A DNA stretch of 64,000 nt from an uncultured Gemmataceae bacterium (GTDB lineage Bacteria > Planctomycetota > Planctomycetia > Gemmatales > Gemmataceae), in NCBI GenBank assembly GCA_963750165.1, contig CAVVPN010000011.1:1984001-2048000 (forward strand), in the 5' to 3' direction. Positions within the stretch are counted from its first letter, which is position 1. Each line of letters opens with the position of its first letter. Made by a program: the position numbers and the translations under genes. The notes below the pieces were generated by a model. That model saw only the letters and a list, made by a program, of their open reading frames with translations, ran no database searches and had not been told where the DNA came from. This document shows, in pieces, positions 26,727-52,342 of the stretch.

Positions 26727-26805
26727 GAGGATCCACAGATGACACAGATAACACAGATGAAGACATAATCAATCATGTCTTCATCTGTGTTATCTGTGGA
26801 TCCTC
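26727..26805. mobile_element. Gene-less 9-bp-unit hairpin element (CACAGATRA units)
   Basis: Left arm 26727-26766 GAGGATCCACAGATGACACAGATAACACAGATGAAGACAT; right arm 26775-26805 is its reverse complement minus one 9-bp unit. Confidence 0.75.
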
Positions 26806-33590: not shown

Positions 33591-33649
33591 GAGGAATTCA
33601 CCACAGAGAGCGCAGAGAGCGCAGAGAAAAGACAAAGAATTGTTTTTTC

Positions 33650-35156
33650 GACACTTTAGCATCAACAGTGGCCCGAATCAGGATCGGAGCGAGCGTGGTG
33701 CAGGGTTTTCAGAGTCCGAGCGCGTTGGCCAGCGCAGTTCGCGGTTCATGTCCAAGGCCAGGCGCTGGTCCAAGTGCTGCTTGGTCCGCACTCCGTAGAT
33801 GCTCTTCTGCGCCTTGCGGAAACGCCGATTGGCCCGCTCTACCGCGTTGCTTGTCGATCCCAACAAACGGTCATCCAAAAACAGCAGCGCCTTGGCCAAA
33901 CCGGGACTATTCAACTCCCGCAAGGCACGCGCCAGGCGCTTGAACCGCCGCACCCGTTGCCGCAATTTCAGCAGACGCCACAGCGCTGTCACTCGCCGGC
34001 AACGGCGGTCGAACAAGCGGTATACTTCGTCCATGATGTCACGCAAGACACGTAGGTGCGGCTGGCCGCGCAGTCAGGCGCTTCAGCAGTTGCTTCTGGG
34101 CCGCGCTGAGGTGATGTCGCACGAACAAGTGACGGTGCTCGAACAGGTCCGCGACGCGCTGCTGCAACCGCTGGCTCCGCCGCGCCTGGGCTTGGTCCTG
34201 TTGGCGGGGTCGGCCGCGCCGCTGCTTGGGGATCGTGGCCTTGATCTGCTTGCGCAACTTGGCCAGCGCCCGCAGTACCGCCTTGGTGATCTCCTTGAGG
34301 ATGTGGAAGCGGCAACGCTGGTGCGGGACAGCAGGCCACAACTCCTTGAGCACCTTGGGATAAAGCGGCGACCCGTCCGTGGTGATGCCGCGCACGGCCA
34401 GGCCGCGTTGCTGCAACTGCGCCTGGAAGTCCGTGAGGAAAACGCGGACGTCGTCCTGCGTCGGGTCGTGTTCGAGGACGCGGACGGCCAGCCGGTGGTA
34501 GCGGCGGTTATCCACCACGCTGAGGATGCAGTGCGGGCCATCGTAGACTTCGTCGATGGCCAGGTAACCGGAGAAGTCAGCCAGGGCCTCGTCGAGATAG
34601 GTGCTGGACAGGCCGGCCACCTTTTTTTTCCCCAGCCGCCTCGACCCAGTTCTGGATGGTGGCGTAGGGGACGAAGACGCGGTGGTCGCGCCAGAGATGC
34701 CAGGAGGCGGCCTGGTAGGGCAGCCCATCCTCGGCCACCAGGCGGACGGCCAACTCCTGGACGCGGCGGGTGTAGTGGCACTTGGGCCAGGCCAGGTCGG
34801 AGAGCTCGACGGCGAAGTAGCAGTCACAGTGGGGGCAGTGATGTTTGGAGTAGGTGACGCTGAGGTCGATGGGGCGGCCGACGCGCGGGTCGCCCAGGTC
34901 GTGCAAGGTGCGGACGTCAATGCTGTAGCGGCCGGCGCGGGCACCACAATGGGGGCAGCGGCGTGCGCGGTAGTTACGGCTGCGGCGTTCGCGGCGCGGC
35001 TTGGGGAGGTCTTCGGGCGAGGAAATGCCCTCGGTGACGTCCGGGACGTACTCGCCTGGTCCGAACATGGCTGTGCCCTCCACACCCAAATGCCCCCCCT
35101 ATATTCATTTTACGCCTGGTCGGGCCGGATTCGGTCACCGGCTATGCTAAAGTCTC
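33650..35156 (-). mobile_element. Insertion sequence, 1507 bp, IS256/ISL3-like DDE type
   Basis: Imperfect TIRs GACACTTTAGCAT.../GAGACTTTAGCAT...; 8-bp direct repeat GTTTTTTC at 33642-33649 and 35157-35164. Confidence 0.9.
33678..35068 (-). CDS. Transposase split over three frames (A8 run 34622-34629; shift near 34074)
   Basis: N-terminal CPHC...CPHC zinc finger, then IDEVYDG, TTDGSPLY, QRCRFH (CxxH) and TSNAVERANRRFRK. Confidence 0.85.
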
Positions 35157-35219
35157 GTTTTTTCCCACTTTTTGTCTTTTCTCTGCGCTCTCTGCGTTCT
35201 CTGTGGTGAATTCTCTTTT

Positions 35220-43106: not shown

Positions 43107-44004
43107 TCAGAAGCGCCCCTGCCGCTTCAACAGGTACTCCATCAGCGCCCGGTCGAAGTTGACGCTGGTGTCCATCGGCACATAGTCGATGCGTGCCTTG
43201 GCGCACTCCTGGCGGTAGAACTCCCGGAACGTCCCCAGCGCCTCCAGGTAATCCGGCCGCATGGCCCTGGCGTCCAGCGTCATCTTCTGGTCCGCCTCCA
43301 CGTCCTTGAACTCGACGATGCCCTCGAACGGGAAGTGGACCTCCGCCTCGTCGAGGATGTGGAAGAGGATGATGTCGTTGCCGCGGTGGCGCAGGTGGTG
43401 CAGGCTCTGGATCAGCGGCGCCGGTTCGGTGAGCAGGTCGCTGAAGACCATGATGAGGCTCTTGCTGCGGATCATCGACGCCAGCTGGTGCAGACCGCCG
43501 GCCACGTCGGTCGGCGCCGGCTGGCTTCAGGTTCGCCAGCACCGCCAGCATGGTGCCCAGCTGCGTCCGCTTGCTGCGCGGCGGCAGGCAGGTGCGGATG
43601 CGCGTGTCGAACGTCACCAGGCCGACCGGATCCTGCTGGTGGATCATCAGGTAGCCCAGCGCCGCCGCCAGGCAAATGGCGTACTCGAACTTCGTCAGCT
43701 TCTGGCGATACGTGTAGGCCATCGAGGCGCTCAGGTCCATCGCCAGGTAGCCGGTGACGTTCGTTTCCGCCTGGAACTTTTTGAGATAATACTTGTCGGT
43801 CTTGGCGTAGATGTTCCAGTCGAGGTCCTTGAGGTCGTCGCCGTGGACGTACTTGCGGTGCTCGCTGAACTCGACGGAGAAGCCCTGGAATGGGCTGGCG
43901 TGCAGGCCGGCCAGGAAGCCCTCGACGATGAACTTGGCGCGCAGGTCAAGACGGGCGACCTGGCGGATGACCTCGGGCTTGAGATATTGTTCAGGGTTGC
44001 TCAT
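43107..44004 (-). CDS. DUF58 domain protein, frameshift near 43520
   Basis: GLHASPFQGFSVEFSEHRKY, DLSASM, then VFSDLL in the second frame. Confidence 0.9.
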
Positions 44005-44450
44005 GTCGCCTCCGCCACCAGCAGTTTGCCGTCCGCCGCGTGAAAGCCGCTGATGTCCGCCTGGTAAATGCCGTCCGTCTGCCGCGCCAGCCAGCGGCAC
44101 AGGTCCAGACAGACGCCGGCCAGCGTCAGCGCCGGCGGCGCGTGCAGGCAGAACAGCTGCGCACTCTGAATCACGCGCTGCATCAGCGCGGCGCTGTGCG
44201 GGTTGGTGTCCTGCACTTCCAGCCACGCCGCCCAGGTGTTCAGCTGCGCCCGGATGCCGGTTTCCGTCGCCCAGTACTGGTCCAGCTCCGCGGGCTGCTC
44301 GGCGCCGGGCGCGAACAATTCGACGCGGAACCAGCCCTGCTCGTCGCCGTGGAAGGCGCAGCGCAACTGCGGAGCGAGGTGCTGCACCTGCTCCTGCAGT
44401 GCCGCCGCAGCCAGCGGCTCGGGGCTCAGACTGAAGACGCGACACCACAT
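44001..44450 (-). CDS. Hypothetical protein in the moxR-DUF58 operon
   Basis: MWCRVFSLS...QTDGIYQADISGFHAADG; the stop overlaps the DUF58 ATG. Confidence 0.75.
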   Translation of the reverse strand: MWCRVFSLSPEPLAAAALQEQVQHLAPQLRCAFHGDEQGWFRVELFAPGAEQPAELDQYWATETGIRAQLNTWAAWLEVQDTNPHSAALMQRVIQSAQLFCLHAPPALTLAGVCLDLCRWLARQTDGIYQADISGFHAADGKLLVAEAT

Positions 44451-44456
44451 TCGATT

Positions 44457-44968
44457 CACCACAAAGACACAAAGAGCACAAAGGAAAAGGCAGAGGAAGA
44501 GAAAGAAGTTAGCCGTGGACGAGCCGCCGGATACCGTTCCGCAACACTGGGACGTTGAAATTTAATAACAACCCCAACCAGTGGCCCGAGAGCCGCAGAT
44601 AGGTGAGCAACTGGGCATCGTGGATGCGCTCCAACTTGTCCACCGACTTCAATTCAAGCACCACGAGTTCGCCCACCACAATGTCCATGCGGTAGGCACA
44701 ATCGAGATCCAACCCTTTGTAGAACACCGGCAGACGCACCTCCGGTTCAAAGGCAATCCCGCGCAATTTCAATTCGTGTTCCAGACATTTCTGGTAAGCC
44801 GACTCAAACAACCCCGGCCCCAGGTGCCGATGAACTTCGATGGCCGCGCCGATCACCAGTTCAGACAGTTCATCCGCTCTGGCTTTATCCTCGGGGCGAT
44901 GACTCATTGCTATCTCCCTCCTTTCTTCCTCTGCCTTTTCCTTTGTGCATCTTTGTGTCTTTGTGGTG
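44457..44968. mobile_element. 512-bp GxxExxY cassette bounded by 44/45-bp inverted repeats
   Basis: Arms 44457-44500 and 44924-44968 (CACCACAAAGACACAAAGA(T)GCACAAAGGAAAAGGCAGAGGAAGA) match except for a 1-nt indel; interior is lower in GC. Confidence 0.8.
44509..44907 (-). CDS. GxxExxY protein (PD-(D/E)XK nuclease-fold family)
   Basis: IGAAIEVHRHLGPGLFESAY, RMDIVV...LELK, HDAQLLTYL, GLLLNF. Confidence 0.95.
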   Translation of the reverse strand: MSHRPEDKARADELSELVIGAAIEVHRHLGPGLFESAYQKCLEHELKLRGIAFEPEVRLPVFYKGLDLDCAYRMDIVVGELVVLELKSVDKLERIHDAQLLTYLRLSGHWLGLLLNFNVPVLRNGIRRLVHG

Positions 44969-45988
<1,020 letters not shown>

Positions 45989-46157
45989 CGTGGCAATTCC
46001 TTGTAAGGAGAGGGCGACCTGTCCTCGGCTCATTGTAGCAGGCCACGCGGCTTTCTCCCTCCCTCTGAAACTGAACAGGCGGGTTGCGTTTCCGCGCGGT
46101 GGCTCCTATAGTGGCTGGCGTGTTGACCAGCAAGCTGCGCTAATGACAGGCGAACGT

Positions 46158-49160: not shown

Positions 49161-49213
49161 GGTTCGCAGTTGCGTGGACCACGAACGGCAGGCCGGCGCT
49201 GCCAGGCGCCGAT

Positions 49214-49370
49214 TCTCGACGTGTGAAAAAGTTGGCGTTCTTGGCGTCCTTGCTGTGGCAACCGCCGCCGTTGGTTGTTGAGTCGTGCCACCTGCACGGG
49301 GCCAGGGCGCCAAATCTCGACGTATGAAAAAGTTGGCCCCCTTGGCCTCCTTGGCCCCCTTGCTGTGGCA
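49214..49370 (+). repeat. One-armed repeat family copies 2 and 3 (101 bp apart)
   Basis: 49214-49260 (2 units) and 49315-49370 (3 units), each TCTCGACGTRTGAAAAAG(TTGGCnnnn)nTTGCTGTGGCA. Confidence 0.9.
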
Positions 49371-49494
49371 GAGCAGGCCGCTGGTGGTCAGCCCGTGCCC
49401 GCCCACTCGTGTGCAAACCGTGCGTGAACCGCTCCAGGCAACGTTCCAAAAAAGAAACGAGATCATCCTTCCTCTTTCGATCGGCCATTCTACC

Positions 49495-50610
49495 TCACCC
49501 CAGCACGCTCTGCGCGAACACCTGCGCCACGGCCATGCTCTCGCGGAACACCGGGTCGCGTTCACGATCGGACAGCTGGCGTCCAACCAACTCCGCCAAA
49601 TGCTGCGGCGGTGCCGTCACCGTCCGCGGCGCCCCGGCCACGCCCTCCAGGTGCGCCGATAGCCGTTTCTCATCCTCGACGACGACGTTGACTGCCGCCG
49701 GCTTGCCGTCCAGCGTACACGCCACGCGCACGTGCCGCACGTCGGACGGGCCCTCCGGCAGCCGGTGGATGCGCACCCGCAACGGCCCGTGCGGCGCCGT
49801 CACCTGCCAGAAGAATTCCACGCCCGGCTGCGTGTGGCCGCGCTGCACGTGCCAGTCCAGCCGCGACGCCAGCCAGCTCACCAGCTCCCACGCTTGCACC
49901 ACCGCGTGCGGCCCGTGCTCGACCAGTACCTCGGTGATCGATTGCAGCGCTCCCGGGGCGGTGTTCGGGTCCAGGGCCTGACCCAGCAACCGCCGCCAGT
50001 ATTTCAGCCGTCGCCAGTTCAAATCCGACACCACGCGCCAACCGTGGCCGGCGCCGCGCTCGAACCTGTCCAACCACGCCGCCGTCGCCGCCACGCCGCG
50101 CGCCGGCTCGCGCCAGCCGTTGCTGTCGAAGATCACCTGCTGCGCCGGCTGGGCCAGGTCGTAGGCCAGCTGCCCGGCCAGCGGCGGCGGCAGCGGCGCC
50201 AGCCACCACAGGTTCGTCGGCAGGTCGCCGATCAACAGTTCGCGCACCGCGAACGCCAATCGGCCGCCCAGGTAGCCGCGCGAGCGCAGCGTCACCAGTT
50301 CCGAACCAACGCCGCGGCCCCCGAGCTGCTGGCACAGCACCTTCGCCGTGGCCGACACCGGCTCCAGCTCGCCGCGCTCCGCCAGCAACAGCAGCACCCG
50401 CGCCGGGTGAGCGGCGATGACCTCGGGCAGCGCCGCCTCCAACTGCGTCACCTGCGCAGCGTCGTTGCAGTAGACGATCAGGTTCGCCATGTGCGCCTTG
50501 ATCAGCGGCGCCGCGCCGGCGGCGCGGCCGGCGTTCATCTGCCGATTCAGCTCGGCCTCGACGCGGTTCAGCGGGATACTGTCCGGCGGTGGCACATATT
50601 CCTCGTCCAT
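49495..50610 (-). CDS. opcA: Glucose-6-phosphate dehydrogenase assembly protein OpcA
   Basis: AHPARVLLL, LLIGDLPTNLWW, IFDS, SDLNWRRLKYWR; TGATG-coupled to zwf. Confidence 0.88.
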   Translation of the reverse strand: MDEEYVPPPDSIPLNRVEAELNRQMNAGRAAGAAPLIKAHMANLIVYCNDAAQVTQLEAALPEVIAAHPARVLLLLAERGELEPVSATAKVLCQQLGGRGVGSELVTLRSRGYLGGRLAFAVRELLIGDLPTNLWWLAPLPPPLAGQLAYDLAQPAQQVIFDSNGWREPARGVAATAAWLDRFERGAGHGWRVVSDLNWRRLKYWRRLLGQALDPNTAPGALQSITEVLVEHGPHAVVQAWELVSWLASRLDWHVQRGHTQPGVEFFWQVTAPHGPLRVRIHRLPEGPSDVRHVRVACTLDGKPAAVNVVVEDEKRLSAHLEGVAGAPRTVTAPPQHLAELVGRQLSDRERDPVFRESMAVAQVFAQSVLG

Positions 50611-52188
50611 CACAGCGTCCTCCACGCCCGGCCGTCCGTTTCGATGAGGCGGTCGGCTTCCAGCGGCCCCCAGGTGCCGGCCCGGTACTCCGGCAGAAAG
50701 CGCACGTGCGACCGTTCCCACTCTTGTAGAATCGGCGTCACCCACTGCCAGGCCACCTCCACGGCGTCGCGGCGCATGAACAGCGTGGCATCGCCGGCCA
50801 TCACGTCCAGCAGCAGCCGCTCGTACGCCTCCGGCGAACTGCCGCCGAAGCTGGAGCTATAATTGAACTCCATTTTCACCGGATAAATGCGCACCTTCGG
50901 CCCCGGCAGCTTGGAAGCGATGCGCAGCGACAGGCCCTCCTCCGGCTGCACGCGCAGCGACAGCACGGTCGGCTCCAGCGGCACATCGGGGTGGTCGTTG
51001 AACAAAATCTGCGGCACCTCCTTGAACTGGATGGCGACCTCGCTGGCGCACCTGGGCAGGCGCTTGCCGGTGCGCAGGTAGAACGGCACGCCCGCCCAGC
51101 GCCAGTTGTCCACGAACAGCCGCAGGGCGATGAACGTTTCGGTGGTGGAGTCGGGCGGGATCGGCTTGTTGCGGGCGGCGAAGAAGTCGCTGACCTCGCG
51201 GCGGTAGCCGGGCACCTCCTTGCCGTTGATCTCGCCGGCGATGTACTGGGCGCGCACCACGAACCTGTCCACGTCCGCCGGCGTCATGGGCCGCAGGCAG
51301 TTGAGCACGCCGATTTTGCCGTCGCGCACCACGTCGGCGTTGAGCGACCACGGCGGCTCCATCGCCACCAGGCACAGCACCTGCAGCAAATGGTTCTGCA
51401 CCATGTCGCGCAAGACGCCAATGCCCTCGAAGTAGCCGATGCGGTTGCCGACGCCCTCCTCCTCCGCGACGGTGATCTGTACATGGTCGATATACTTGGC
51501 GTTCCACAGTGGCTCGAAAATGCTGTTGGCGAAGCGGACCACCATCAGGTTTTGCACCGTCTCCTTGCCAAGGTAGTGGTCGATGCGGTAAATCTGCTGC
51601 TCGGCGAACGCCTGGGACAGCGAGGCGTTCACCTGTTTGGCGCTCTCCAGGTCGCGGCCGATGGGCTTTTCGACGATGACACGCGTGAAGGCGGGGTCGT
51701 CGGGCGACCGCACCAGACCGTTCCGTTTCAGGTGCAGCACCGACACGTCCACCAGGCTCGGCGGGATCGACAGGTAAAAGACACGGTTGCCGGGGATGCC
51801 GAACTGGTGATCGACCATCTCGAGCTTGGTTTGCAGTTCGGCGTAAGCGCGGGACTCGTTGAAGCTGCCCTCGACGTAGAACAGGGCGCGGGCGAAGTCG
51901 GCCCAGTGGCTCTCGTTGAGCGGTTGCCGTGAGAAGTGCTCGATGCCGTCTTTGGCCCGCGCGGATCCACTCATCGGGCTCGCCCTGCGAGCCGATACCG
52001 AAGCCGACGACCGCGAAGTTGGCGGGCAGCACGCCATCGAGGTTGAGGTTGTACAGCGCCGGCAGCAGCTTGCGCCAGGACAGGTCGCCGGCGGCGCCAA
52101 AGATGACAAGCACGCACGGCTGCGGCAGCAGCGCCTGGGCGGTGCCGGCGGTTAACGGATTCTCGTGTTGCAGGGTGGCCGTCGCCAT
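50610..52188 (-). CDS. zwf: Glucose-6-phosphate 1-dehydrogenase, frameshift near 51960
   Basis: [18 protein letters not shown] in one frame; [25 protein letters not shown] and [13 protein letters not shown] in the next. Confidence 0.93.
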
Positions 52189-52213
52189 CAAATGATCTCC
52201 AGGTGTTCTATTT

Positions 52214-52342
52214 TTAGCCACAGAGGACACAGAGGACACAGAGAGAAAAACAGAGGAAAAACTAATTGAATCAACCGTCTTGCTGACTTTTTCAATTCCT
52301 TCTCTTTTTTCTCTCTGTGTCCTCTGTGTCCTCTGTGGCTAA
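52214..52342. mobile_element. Gene-less 9-bp-unit hairpin element (CACAGAGGA units)
   Basis: Perfect 37-bp arms 52214-52250 and 52306-52342 (TTAGCCACAGAGGACACAGAGGACACAGAGAGAAAAA) around an AT-rich loop. Confidence 0.8.

Follow-up and report, generated by a model that had tools for sequence, protein, structure and literature searches.

A GxxExxY gene between periodic inverted arms in a Gemmataceae genome, a candidate RAYT-like helper of gene-less hairpin elements

The present work deals with a short cassette located at positions 44457–44968 of a 64,000-nucleotide stretch of DNA (the window) from an uncultured Gemmataceae bacterium (assembly GCA_963750165.1, contig CAVVPN010000011.1, positions 1,984,001 to 2,048,000), in which one gene of the GxxExxY family (PDDEXK_3, PF13366) is enclosed by two inward-facing periodic arms. 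Judged from its sequence and that of its relatives, this cassette likely belongs to a family of hairpin elements whose arms repeat with a 7-base unit, and would be the member that carries the gene. The gene appears to behave like a resident helper (a RAYT-like REPtron) moving slowly between hosts, and the gene-less pairs of arms, or dyads, like the multiplying part of the system. By analogy with RAYT, it is somewhat probable that the protein binds the arm units in a base-specific manner, cuts, as predicted, near their outer ends and thereby supports a slow copying of the dyads.

The cassette has a GC content of 53% compared to about 66% genome-wide. As the original prediction had described, the arm downstream of the gene (44457–44500, 44 nt, + strand) consists of CAC followed by three CACAAAG units, at a pitch of 8–9 nt, and by a purine tract, whereas the first base of the arm upstream of the gene (44924–44968, 45 nt, − strand) immediately follows the moxR stop codon. 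The two arms agree at 44 of 45 positions, the sole difference being one inserted base. The 132-amino acid GxxExxY gene (44509–44907, − strand), assigned by profile matches, alignment and a structure model, is the only gene between them. A purine tract (44908–44923, − strand) harbors a Shine-Dalgarno-like sequence for this gene and, according to the predicted fold, would form base pairs in the RNA with the other arm's pyrimidine tract; the cassette as a whole is predicted to form a long RNA stem (folding z = −7.5). Judged by the family consensus, which continues outward with GGATTCA and about 5 A/G-rich bases, the element reaches some 5–12 nt past the ends drawn earlier, and its termini are not fixed. 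A likely outer extension of the downstream arm occurs at 44451–44456 (+ strand), where positions 44453–44458 fit the family consensus GATTCA and the exact arm end is indeterminate. On the other side, the purine-rich last codons and the stop of moxR (44969–44980, − strand) may partly represent the outer arm of the element, inseparable from a native Lys-rich C-terminus of MoxR. Removal of 44457–44968 does leave TAG-AATCGA-ATG, as originally predicted, but with ends that are too tight, the AATC remnant probably belonging to the element. Among sequencing runs, one DNA run shared 5% of the words and gave no coverage of the cassette.

The gene-less copies of the arms had been overlooked in the original prediction, three of them lying inside the window. 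A 16-nt core of the arm gives 107 matches (at most 2 mismatches) in the 9.6-Mb source genome versus 1 in a shuffled genome, which resolve into 50 inward-facing pairs, namely 49 gene-less dyads of 55–154 bp and the window cassette, and 7 singles. Related arm families, with a slight overlap between them, account for 42 (CACAGAG), 39 (CACAGAT) and 12 (CACGAA) pairs, and the only other GxxExxY gene of the genome, 44% identical to that of the window, is bracketed by CACAGAG arms. With a looser three-unit search, 90 short and 4 long pairs were obtained. Two of the long ones hold the GxxExxY genes, a third has an insertion sequence in its loop and the fourth is a nest of other repeats; no other host-type gene occurs within any of these 4 long pairs. 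Variants common to both arms of a dyad are found 133 times versus 48 expected, and in 28 of 134 elements, versus 4.2 expected, the inverted match continues perfectly for at least 8 nt past the core. In agreement with the original prediction, there is no excess of target duplication, direct repeats of at least 5 nt flanking 14 of the 134 elements versus 11.2 expected. With a crude codon-based model of 7,048 genes, which also underlies the statistics on position given below, a single one of 133 short dyads is called inside a gene. At one chemotaxis-operon junction shared by 16 species of the genus g70 (L440–L459), one species has the whole dyad, most retain just one of its arms and several have lost any trace of it; dyads are thus of old age, and their two arms are lost in succession.

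Within the window, gene-less dyads with CACAGAG and CACAGAT arms are located at 52218–52338 and 26733–26799, respectively, the former giving in Rfam only matches of hairpin shape below the gathering score. The third one (33601–35206), a CACAGAG/CGCAGAG dyad with an 8-bp direct repeat, contains in its loop a frameshifted DDE transposase, 9.3 kb away from the cassette, which contradicts the earlier statement that no DDE enzyme occurs nearby. This transposase (ISL3/Mutator-like, with a weak PF01610 match) possesses its own short inverted ends, and dyad loops act as landing sites for other elements.

Outside the source genome, a survey of 201 genomes from the phylum detected GxxExxY genes in 105 (384 matches). 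The set of homologues, made of 30 loci, 60 regions from the 150 listed of these 384 matches and the best 80 of 225 GTDB relatives, consists of the best-scoring members and favours intact ones; it comprises 172 genes, 166 of which have enough flanking sequence, including the query, one duplicate and one partial locus (the last two dropped for the count of unit classes). Using an inverted alignment score of at least 30, arms were recognized at 142 of the 166 loci, while the controls with displaced windows and with mismatched pairs gave 1 of 157 and 29 of 166, respectively. GxxExxY genes are thus enriched for flanking inverted arms of periodic build, as had been anticipated. The same unit class occurs on both arms in 99 of 124 two-arm loci versus 34.8 after shuffling, and a held-out set from two other taxa yielded arms at 37 of 44 loci versus 2 of 44 controls. 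In Geothrix fermentans, all three 440–470 bp arm pairs among the matches listed, which were first detected as patterns, turned out to enclose GxxExxY genes, and 5 of its 9 GxxExxY genes have arms by pattern, each with a different unit. At the level of whole genomes (200 genomes), at least 15 three-unit arm matches are present in 74 of the 104 genomes with the gene versus 9 of the 96 without it; the corresponding control with Y1 transposases is weaker overall (74/138 versus 9/62) and vanishes among the gene-positive genomes. Out of 80 metagenome arms, 49 belong to dyads, 2 enclose a GxxExxY gene, 3 form longer pairs devoid of it, 21 have no partner by pattern and 5 are cut off, while 67 distinct arms from viral contigs include 34 dyads and none with a GxxExxY gene. 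In genome G071 (L539:285-2775), the arms bracket a GxxExxY gene together with a 566-amino acid gene (weak DDE match), ahead of a type I methylase-like gene.

The covariation of the arm units with the protein, anticipated in the original prediction, was examined on 186 proteins, 134 of them with both arms. Base 5 of the unit is A with a residue 15 other than Thr in 32/33 and G with Thr in 85/95, whereas CGC units (base 2) accompany a tail of at least 4 residues after R128 in 41/41 and CAC units a tail of 3 residues in 68/82. For the final base of the unit, the tree requires 4 changes versus 25 for shuffles, which linkage alone could give. For the base-5 and base-2 traits, however, the best tree requires 13 and 21 changes, respectively, and independent pairs amount to 8.4:0 and 13.8:0 as compared to 1.9:4.2 and 1.5:2.9 for the crossed controls, and residue 15 and the tail are each the top column for their own arm base. 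Linkage alone is therefore disfavoured, since each protein end would then follow both bases, which is not the case. Among 40 held-out proteins, with kinship uncontrolled, the base-5 rule is obeyed in 7/8 and 14/20 (p 0.011) and the rule linking base 2 to the tail in 11/11 and 10/17 (p 0.002). Both the window gene (AAAG units, Ser15) and its paralogue (AGAG, Thr15) obey the base-5 rule; the 4-residue tail of the window protein belongs to the CAC exceptions to the tail rule. A stop codon supplied by the arm was rejected as the source of the tail rule, with only 2 of 68 cases. Taken as a comparison of sequences, this base-specific covariation points to a direct recognition of the arm units by the protein.

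The protein itself scores 142 bits with TIGR04256 (cut-off 35) and 143 bits with PF13366 (cut-off 22), the only family matching it in the profile search. As previously noted for the D...ELK residues (D75, E85 and K87), its predicted catalytic residues are intact, E35 included, together with Q99 and Y103; in an alignment of 158 proteins, from which 6 with internal stops had been dropped, E35, D75, E85 and K87 are kept in 157–158 and all six residues in 156–158 of the sequences. The structure model (pLDDT 95.7) is consistent with a restriction endonuclease-like PD-(D/E)XK fold and hence with a predicted nuclease. The fold matches are all of intermediate quality, with Z scores below 8 and Foldseek E values no better than 0.01, and mostly correspond to DNases: the nuclease domain of BpuSI (Z 7.5), Cas4 SSO0001 (Z 7.4), Pcal_0546, lambda exonuclease and Hjc. 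No relative was retrieved by a sequence search of the PDB, and the Atlas search returned clusters of the same family only.

On these grounds, we infer the cutting, insertion and mobilisation steps from the fold, the architecture of the elements and the analogy with RAYT. Several protomers would load onto the three units of each arm and cuts would fall within the 5–12 nt that lie just outside the CCAC core. To our knowledge, enzymes of the PD-(D/E)XK fold form no covalent intermediate. Because such a fold hydrolyses DNA in this way, joining would be left to host repair, which would insert the hairpin with one arm templating the other; the variable ends, the lack of duplication and the mutations common to both arms would all be explained by such a repair. 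Gene-less dyads, and rarely the whole cassette, would thus be copied into gaps just after stop codons. The wider proposition, namely that a second, convergent system of the REPIN/RAYT type exists in at least 8 bacterial phyla, we regard as evenly poised. In such a system, a Cas4-like hydrolytic nuclease of about 130 amino acids would read and mobilise 7-base periodic arms by a two-part code, a residue of the N-terminal helix specifying base 5 and the C-terminal tail base 2, and would bring hairpins and sometimes cargo genes to sites after stops without transposase, covalent intermediate or target duplication.

Several observations weigh against a helper that binds and mobilises the arms. The dyads of the source genome all differ from one another (nearest neighbour at a median of 85% and a maximum of 95% identity), and, with no near-identical copies among them, they give no sign of activity in the present day. 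The 39 CACAGAT dyads have no gene of the matching clade in this genome (assembly 93% complete), and 9 of the 96 gene-negative genomes are rich in arms, with up to 234 matches; a profile search of 5 of these arm-rich genomes recovered one weak, stop-containing fragment only. Within host families, the co-occurrence of gene and arms (12:4, p 0.08) does no better than the Y1 control (15:4, p 0.02), so that co-occurrence alone is not proof. In Geothrix fermentans, a 1-kb pair of arms brackets a DUF4268 gene (L533:303-1356); arms can bound cargo or later insertions. With respect to covariation, the well-supported branches of the tree give only 2–3 independent pairs (2:0, not significant), and the two protein features, residue 15 and the tail, were singled out from a scan of some 120 columns. 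Finally, every recent near-identical burst that was traced had been carried by other mobile DNA.

Two of these bursts had the appearance of self-spread. In Singulisphaera sp. GP187 (L398–L405), 5 full, 1 split and 1 deleted copies of a cassette are 90–93% identical; the unit ends 40–80 nt outside the arms with inverted repeats shared with the end of an ISL3 transposase (PF01610), at least 3 copies show 8-bp duplications and several are broken, one of them split by another DDE element. A recent self-duplication was rejected in this case, since multiplication followed the capture of the cassette by ISL3 ends. Azovibrio restrictus (L478–L496) contains some 30 dyads of 163 bp, nearly identical to one another and accompanied by 5-bp duplications, and here too self-spread was rejected, since the same end family carries unrelated inserts in Thiobacillus denitrificans (L521–L532). 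This miniature inverted-repeat transposable element (MITE) has ends of 13–19 nt, 5-bp AT-rich target duplications and varied inserts, periodic-arm dyads included; no transposase with such ends was detected in 8 single-end regions. The copies in genome G235 lie within larger repeats, and a pair in genome G120 is 87% identical, in a context that we take to be attC-like from its motif.

These bursts also favour another explanation, in our opinion rather unlikely, according to which the protein reads the arms without moving them. It would be a host-useful nuclease or DNA-binding protein devoted to defence, repair or self-regulation, whose operator-like arms are spread by MITE capture and recombination. 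The selection acting on the gene fits such a function: leaving aside 4 close pairs of unequal length and 1 that was saturated, the other 8 of the 13 gave ratios of nonsynonymous to synonymous substitution (dN/dS) of 0.03–0.10, with arm cores kept at 92–100% and short spacers drifting. Purifying selection is thus strong on the gene and acts on the arms as well. Inheritance of the gene is mostly vertical, with a horizontal spread between phyla also apparent in the mixing of phyla on the tree. The association of genes with arms, unspecific once kinship is controlled, points in the same direction, and there is a precedent in Rpn, another PD-(D/E)XK family, which was formerly regarded as a mobiliser of DNA and has turned out to be a toxin-antitoxin system directed against phages (PMC10400941). 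For defence, PADLOC gives just weak matches to Cas4 (E 0.006 over 48 residues), and a non-mobilising function leaves unexplained both the dozens of distinct, symmetric and duplication-free dyads in each family and the existence of several arm families, each with its own gene. A mobilising helper would account for the dyads, and it is retained as the preferred reading.

The distribution of the cassette at the moxR junction bears on a further possibility, that of an autonomous, insertion sequence-like element copying itself as a whole. The locus of the conserved hypothetical gene downstream was recovered at 30 loci (66 of 81 genomes matched), 13 of them, window included, with an adjoining moxR. 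In the 12 other moxR-hypothetical junctions, 7 show gaps of about 2–30 nt only, i.e. the empty sites anticipated in the original prediction, and of the remaining 5, two contain other repeats, one a different gene, one a dyad and one a GxxExxY cassette. The cassette of the window is an inserted unit, 11 of these 12 junctions being devoid of such a cassette. The dyad, gene-less and of a different arm family, begins at the stop codon, while the cassette, in genome G260, has a protein 63% identical and its own arm variant. In a tree built from MoxR and the hypothetical protein (17 rows), G260 and the source genome are not sister taxa (approximately unbiased test, p 0.011), which implies either many losses of one ancient insertion or more than a single filling of this site. 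In addition to this patchiness, the closest protein (68%) sits at another locus, two congeneric pairs have the cassette alone in common, with similarity stopping at the arms, and phyla are mixed on the protein tree.

Yet an element copying itself whole is quite improbable. Pairs with at least 85% protein identity mostly share the same whole locus across species, paralogues within one genome are mostly 30–60% identical (15 genomes), the 67 distinct viral-contig arm sites comprise no armed gene, and the multi-copy cases bear the ends of other elements. Together with the low dN/dS, these results fail to support the original prediction of a freely self-mobile element. The junction is patchy rather than fixed in synteny, and close homologues nevertheless mostly remain at the same locus. 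As to single insertion events, the one congeneric comparison of a filled and an empty site shows a 4-nt repeat, which could equally be the microhomology of a deletion, and when sites lacking a whole cassette were sought twice in the genus g70, both attempts led into accessory DNA and none was found. Y1/RAYT enzymes were rejected as the mobiliser, the four Y1 matches of the source genome having no such arms nearby.

The elements occupy a characteristic position with respect to host genes. Their core lies at most 20 nt from a stop codon in 107 of 131 cases, versus 18% for random intergenic points, and divergent gaps hold 3 of 134 elements. TAA represents 46 of 106 adjoining stops versus 19% genome-wide, the outer arm supplying some of the stops, and the GxxExxY gene is co-oriented behind the upstream stop in 49 of 77 cases. 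When all families are measured by one method, stop-adjacent fractions reach 0.54–0.76 for the periodic families and 0.83 for a heptamer family, compared to 0.45–0.60 for several palindromic families and 0–0.27 for others. Stop-codon targeting as a unique trait is weakened accordingly: stop adjacency is strong but REP-like. In this respect, the repetitive extragenic palindromic sequences (REPs) of Escherichia coli are reported to cause ribosome stalling when located at most 15 nt from stops (PMC12306157). The same position, the orientation of the gene, the long predicted RNA stem and a Coxiella intervening sequence (IVS) of similar build with heptamer repeats (PMC4990558) would suit an element acting at the RNA level, like a 23S rRNA IVS placed in mRNA. 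Its arms would pair, leading either to removal of the loop or to a control of the terminating ribosome by the hairpin, and the protein would act on RNA. This RNA-level reading has a slim chance, since several ordinary palindromic families of the genome are also 45–60% stop-adjacent, the best fold matches are mostly DNases and an RNA role alone provides no route to new DNA insertions.

The host genes around the cassette are arranged on the − strand, with the MoxR AAA ATPase gene upstream (44969–46033, profile match) and a conserved 149-amino acid hypothetical gene, which adjoins moxR in relatives, downstream (44004–44450). A frameshift near 43525 interrupts the DUF58 gene farther downstream (43107–44003, − strand); others occur in the glucose-6-phosphate dehydrogenase-like open reading frames near 50610–52239 and in the transposase at 34039–35089, and may correspond to assembly indels or to decay. 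Other repeats coexist with the GxxExxY arms. A single-armed GCCAAG-periodic repeat at about 49180–49500 of the window (− strand) has 182 pattern matches genome-wide, in most cases as a pair of units separated by 110 nt; some copies lie inside CACAGAT dyads, and the repeat is not stop-adjacent. A 7-bp periodic family of the ACTAATG type, present in 53 intergenic gaps, resembles the GxxExxY arms in being mostly stop-adjacent (83%) and in its avoidance of divergent gaps; no gene enclosed by its repeats was found in the source assembly. At least 8 further palindromic intergenic families have 40–200 occupied gaps each, and only four weak Y1 transposase matches are available in the genome to pair with palindromic families.

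In an earlier publication, PF13366 (PDDEXK_3) is listed as 'unknown', with multiple transfers (PMC3424549). No account of a link between GxxExxY genes and arms was found in the literature searched, most subscription journals being outside its reach. What is new here is the residue-to-base signal and its replication, the data on selection, the repeatedly filled junction and the hitch-hiking bursts. The arms give a large and long-unexplained family a named candidate substrate, and the two covarying features allow swap experiments with a predicted outcome, which makes the family directly testable. If the protein indeed mobilises the arms, bacterial DNA would be moved here by a chemistry that is new, and the notion that repeat populations persist as domesticated replicators would gain a second test case. 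A very small nuclease with a tunable reading of sequence is a possible tool, and the system would explain common intergenic repeats that confuse annotation through false N-terminal extensions.

Among known systems, the partnership of a gene with hairpins has so far been described only for an unrelated enzyme class, that of RAYT. According to the reports on REPIN-RAYT (bioRxiv 10.1101/2021.07.10.451892, PMC3733652, PMC12306157), REPINs are extragenic hairpin dyads with a variable spacer, in tens to hundreds of copies, and RAYT is a low-copy, conserved and mostly vertical gene flanked by its repeats, with several gene/repeat pairs per genome. The GxxExxY system resembles these REPtrons or TIRtrons (TnpA-REP, PF01797), as the original prediction had proposed, by its extragenic, hairpin-forming, many-copy dyads with variable spacers, by a low-copy, conserved gene of mostly vertical descent flanked by cognate repeats, and by several gene/repeat pairs per genome and many copies just after stop codons. 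It is set apart from REPIN-RAYT by its enzyme, a 132-amino acid protein of the PD-(D/E)XK fold instead of HUH/Y1, and by its repeat structure, made of non-palindromic tandem 7-mers at a pitch of 8–9 nt devoid of any GTAG/CGTC tag; in addition, its gene tree mixes phyla. Nor does it conform to the definition of a MITE or an IVS. Inverted terminal repeats, non-coding copies and occasional passenger genes are shared with DDE MITEs, e.g., those derived from ISL3, and true MITEs do capture GxxExxY cassettes and dyads. Unlike MITEs, however, the GxxExxY elements have no target duplication, no fixed ends and no DDE gene of their own, the only transposase found between arms in the source genome, where no genome-wide search for insertion sequence ends was made, possessing its own ends. 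The S23p IVS of 23S rRNA is likewise a unit of about 450 nt with a small open reading frame, terminal inverted repeats that form a long stem, and tandem heptamers ahead of the reading frame (PMC4990558). It encodes a four-helix bundle and resides in 23S rRNA, whereas the cassette occurs between protein genes, after stop codons, encodes a nuclease fold and has many copies without a reading frame. With Cas4, lambda exonuclease, Hjc and Rpn (PDDEXK_2), the protein has in common its predicted fold and the E-D-ExK motifs plus QxxxY, a set which we take to be that of the Cas4-type nucleases. It seems to differ from Cas4 in that no invariant, Fe-S-type cysteine is evident in the 158-protein alignment and no cas genes are found beside the window gene, and the Z score of Cas4 is tied with those of other families of the same fold.
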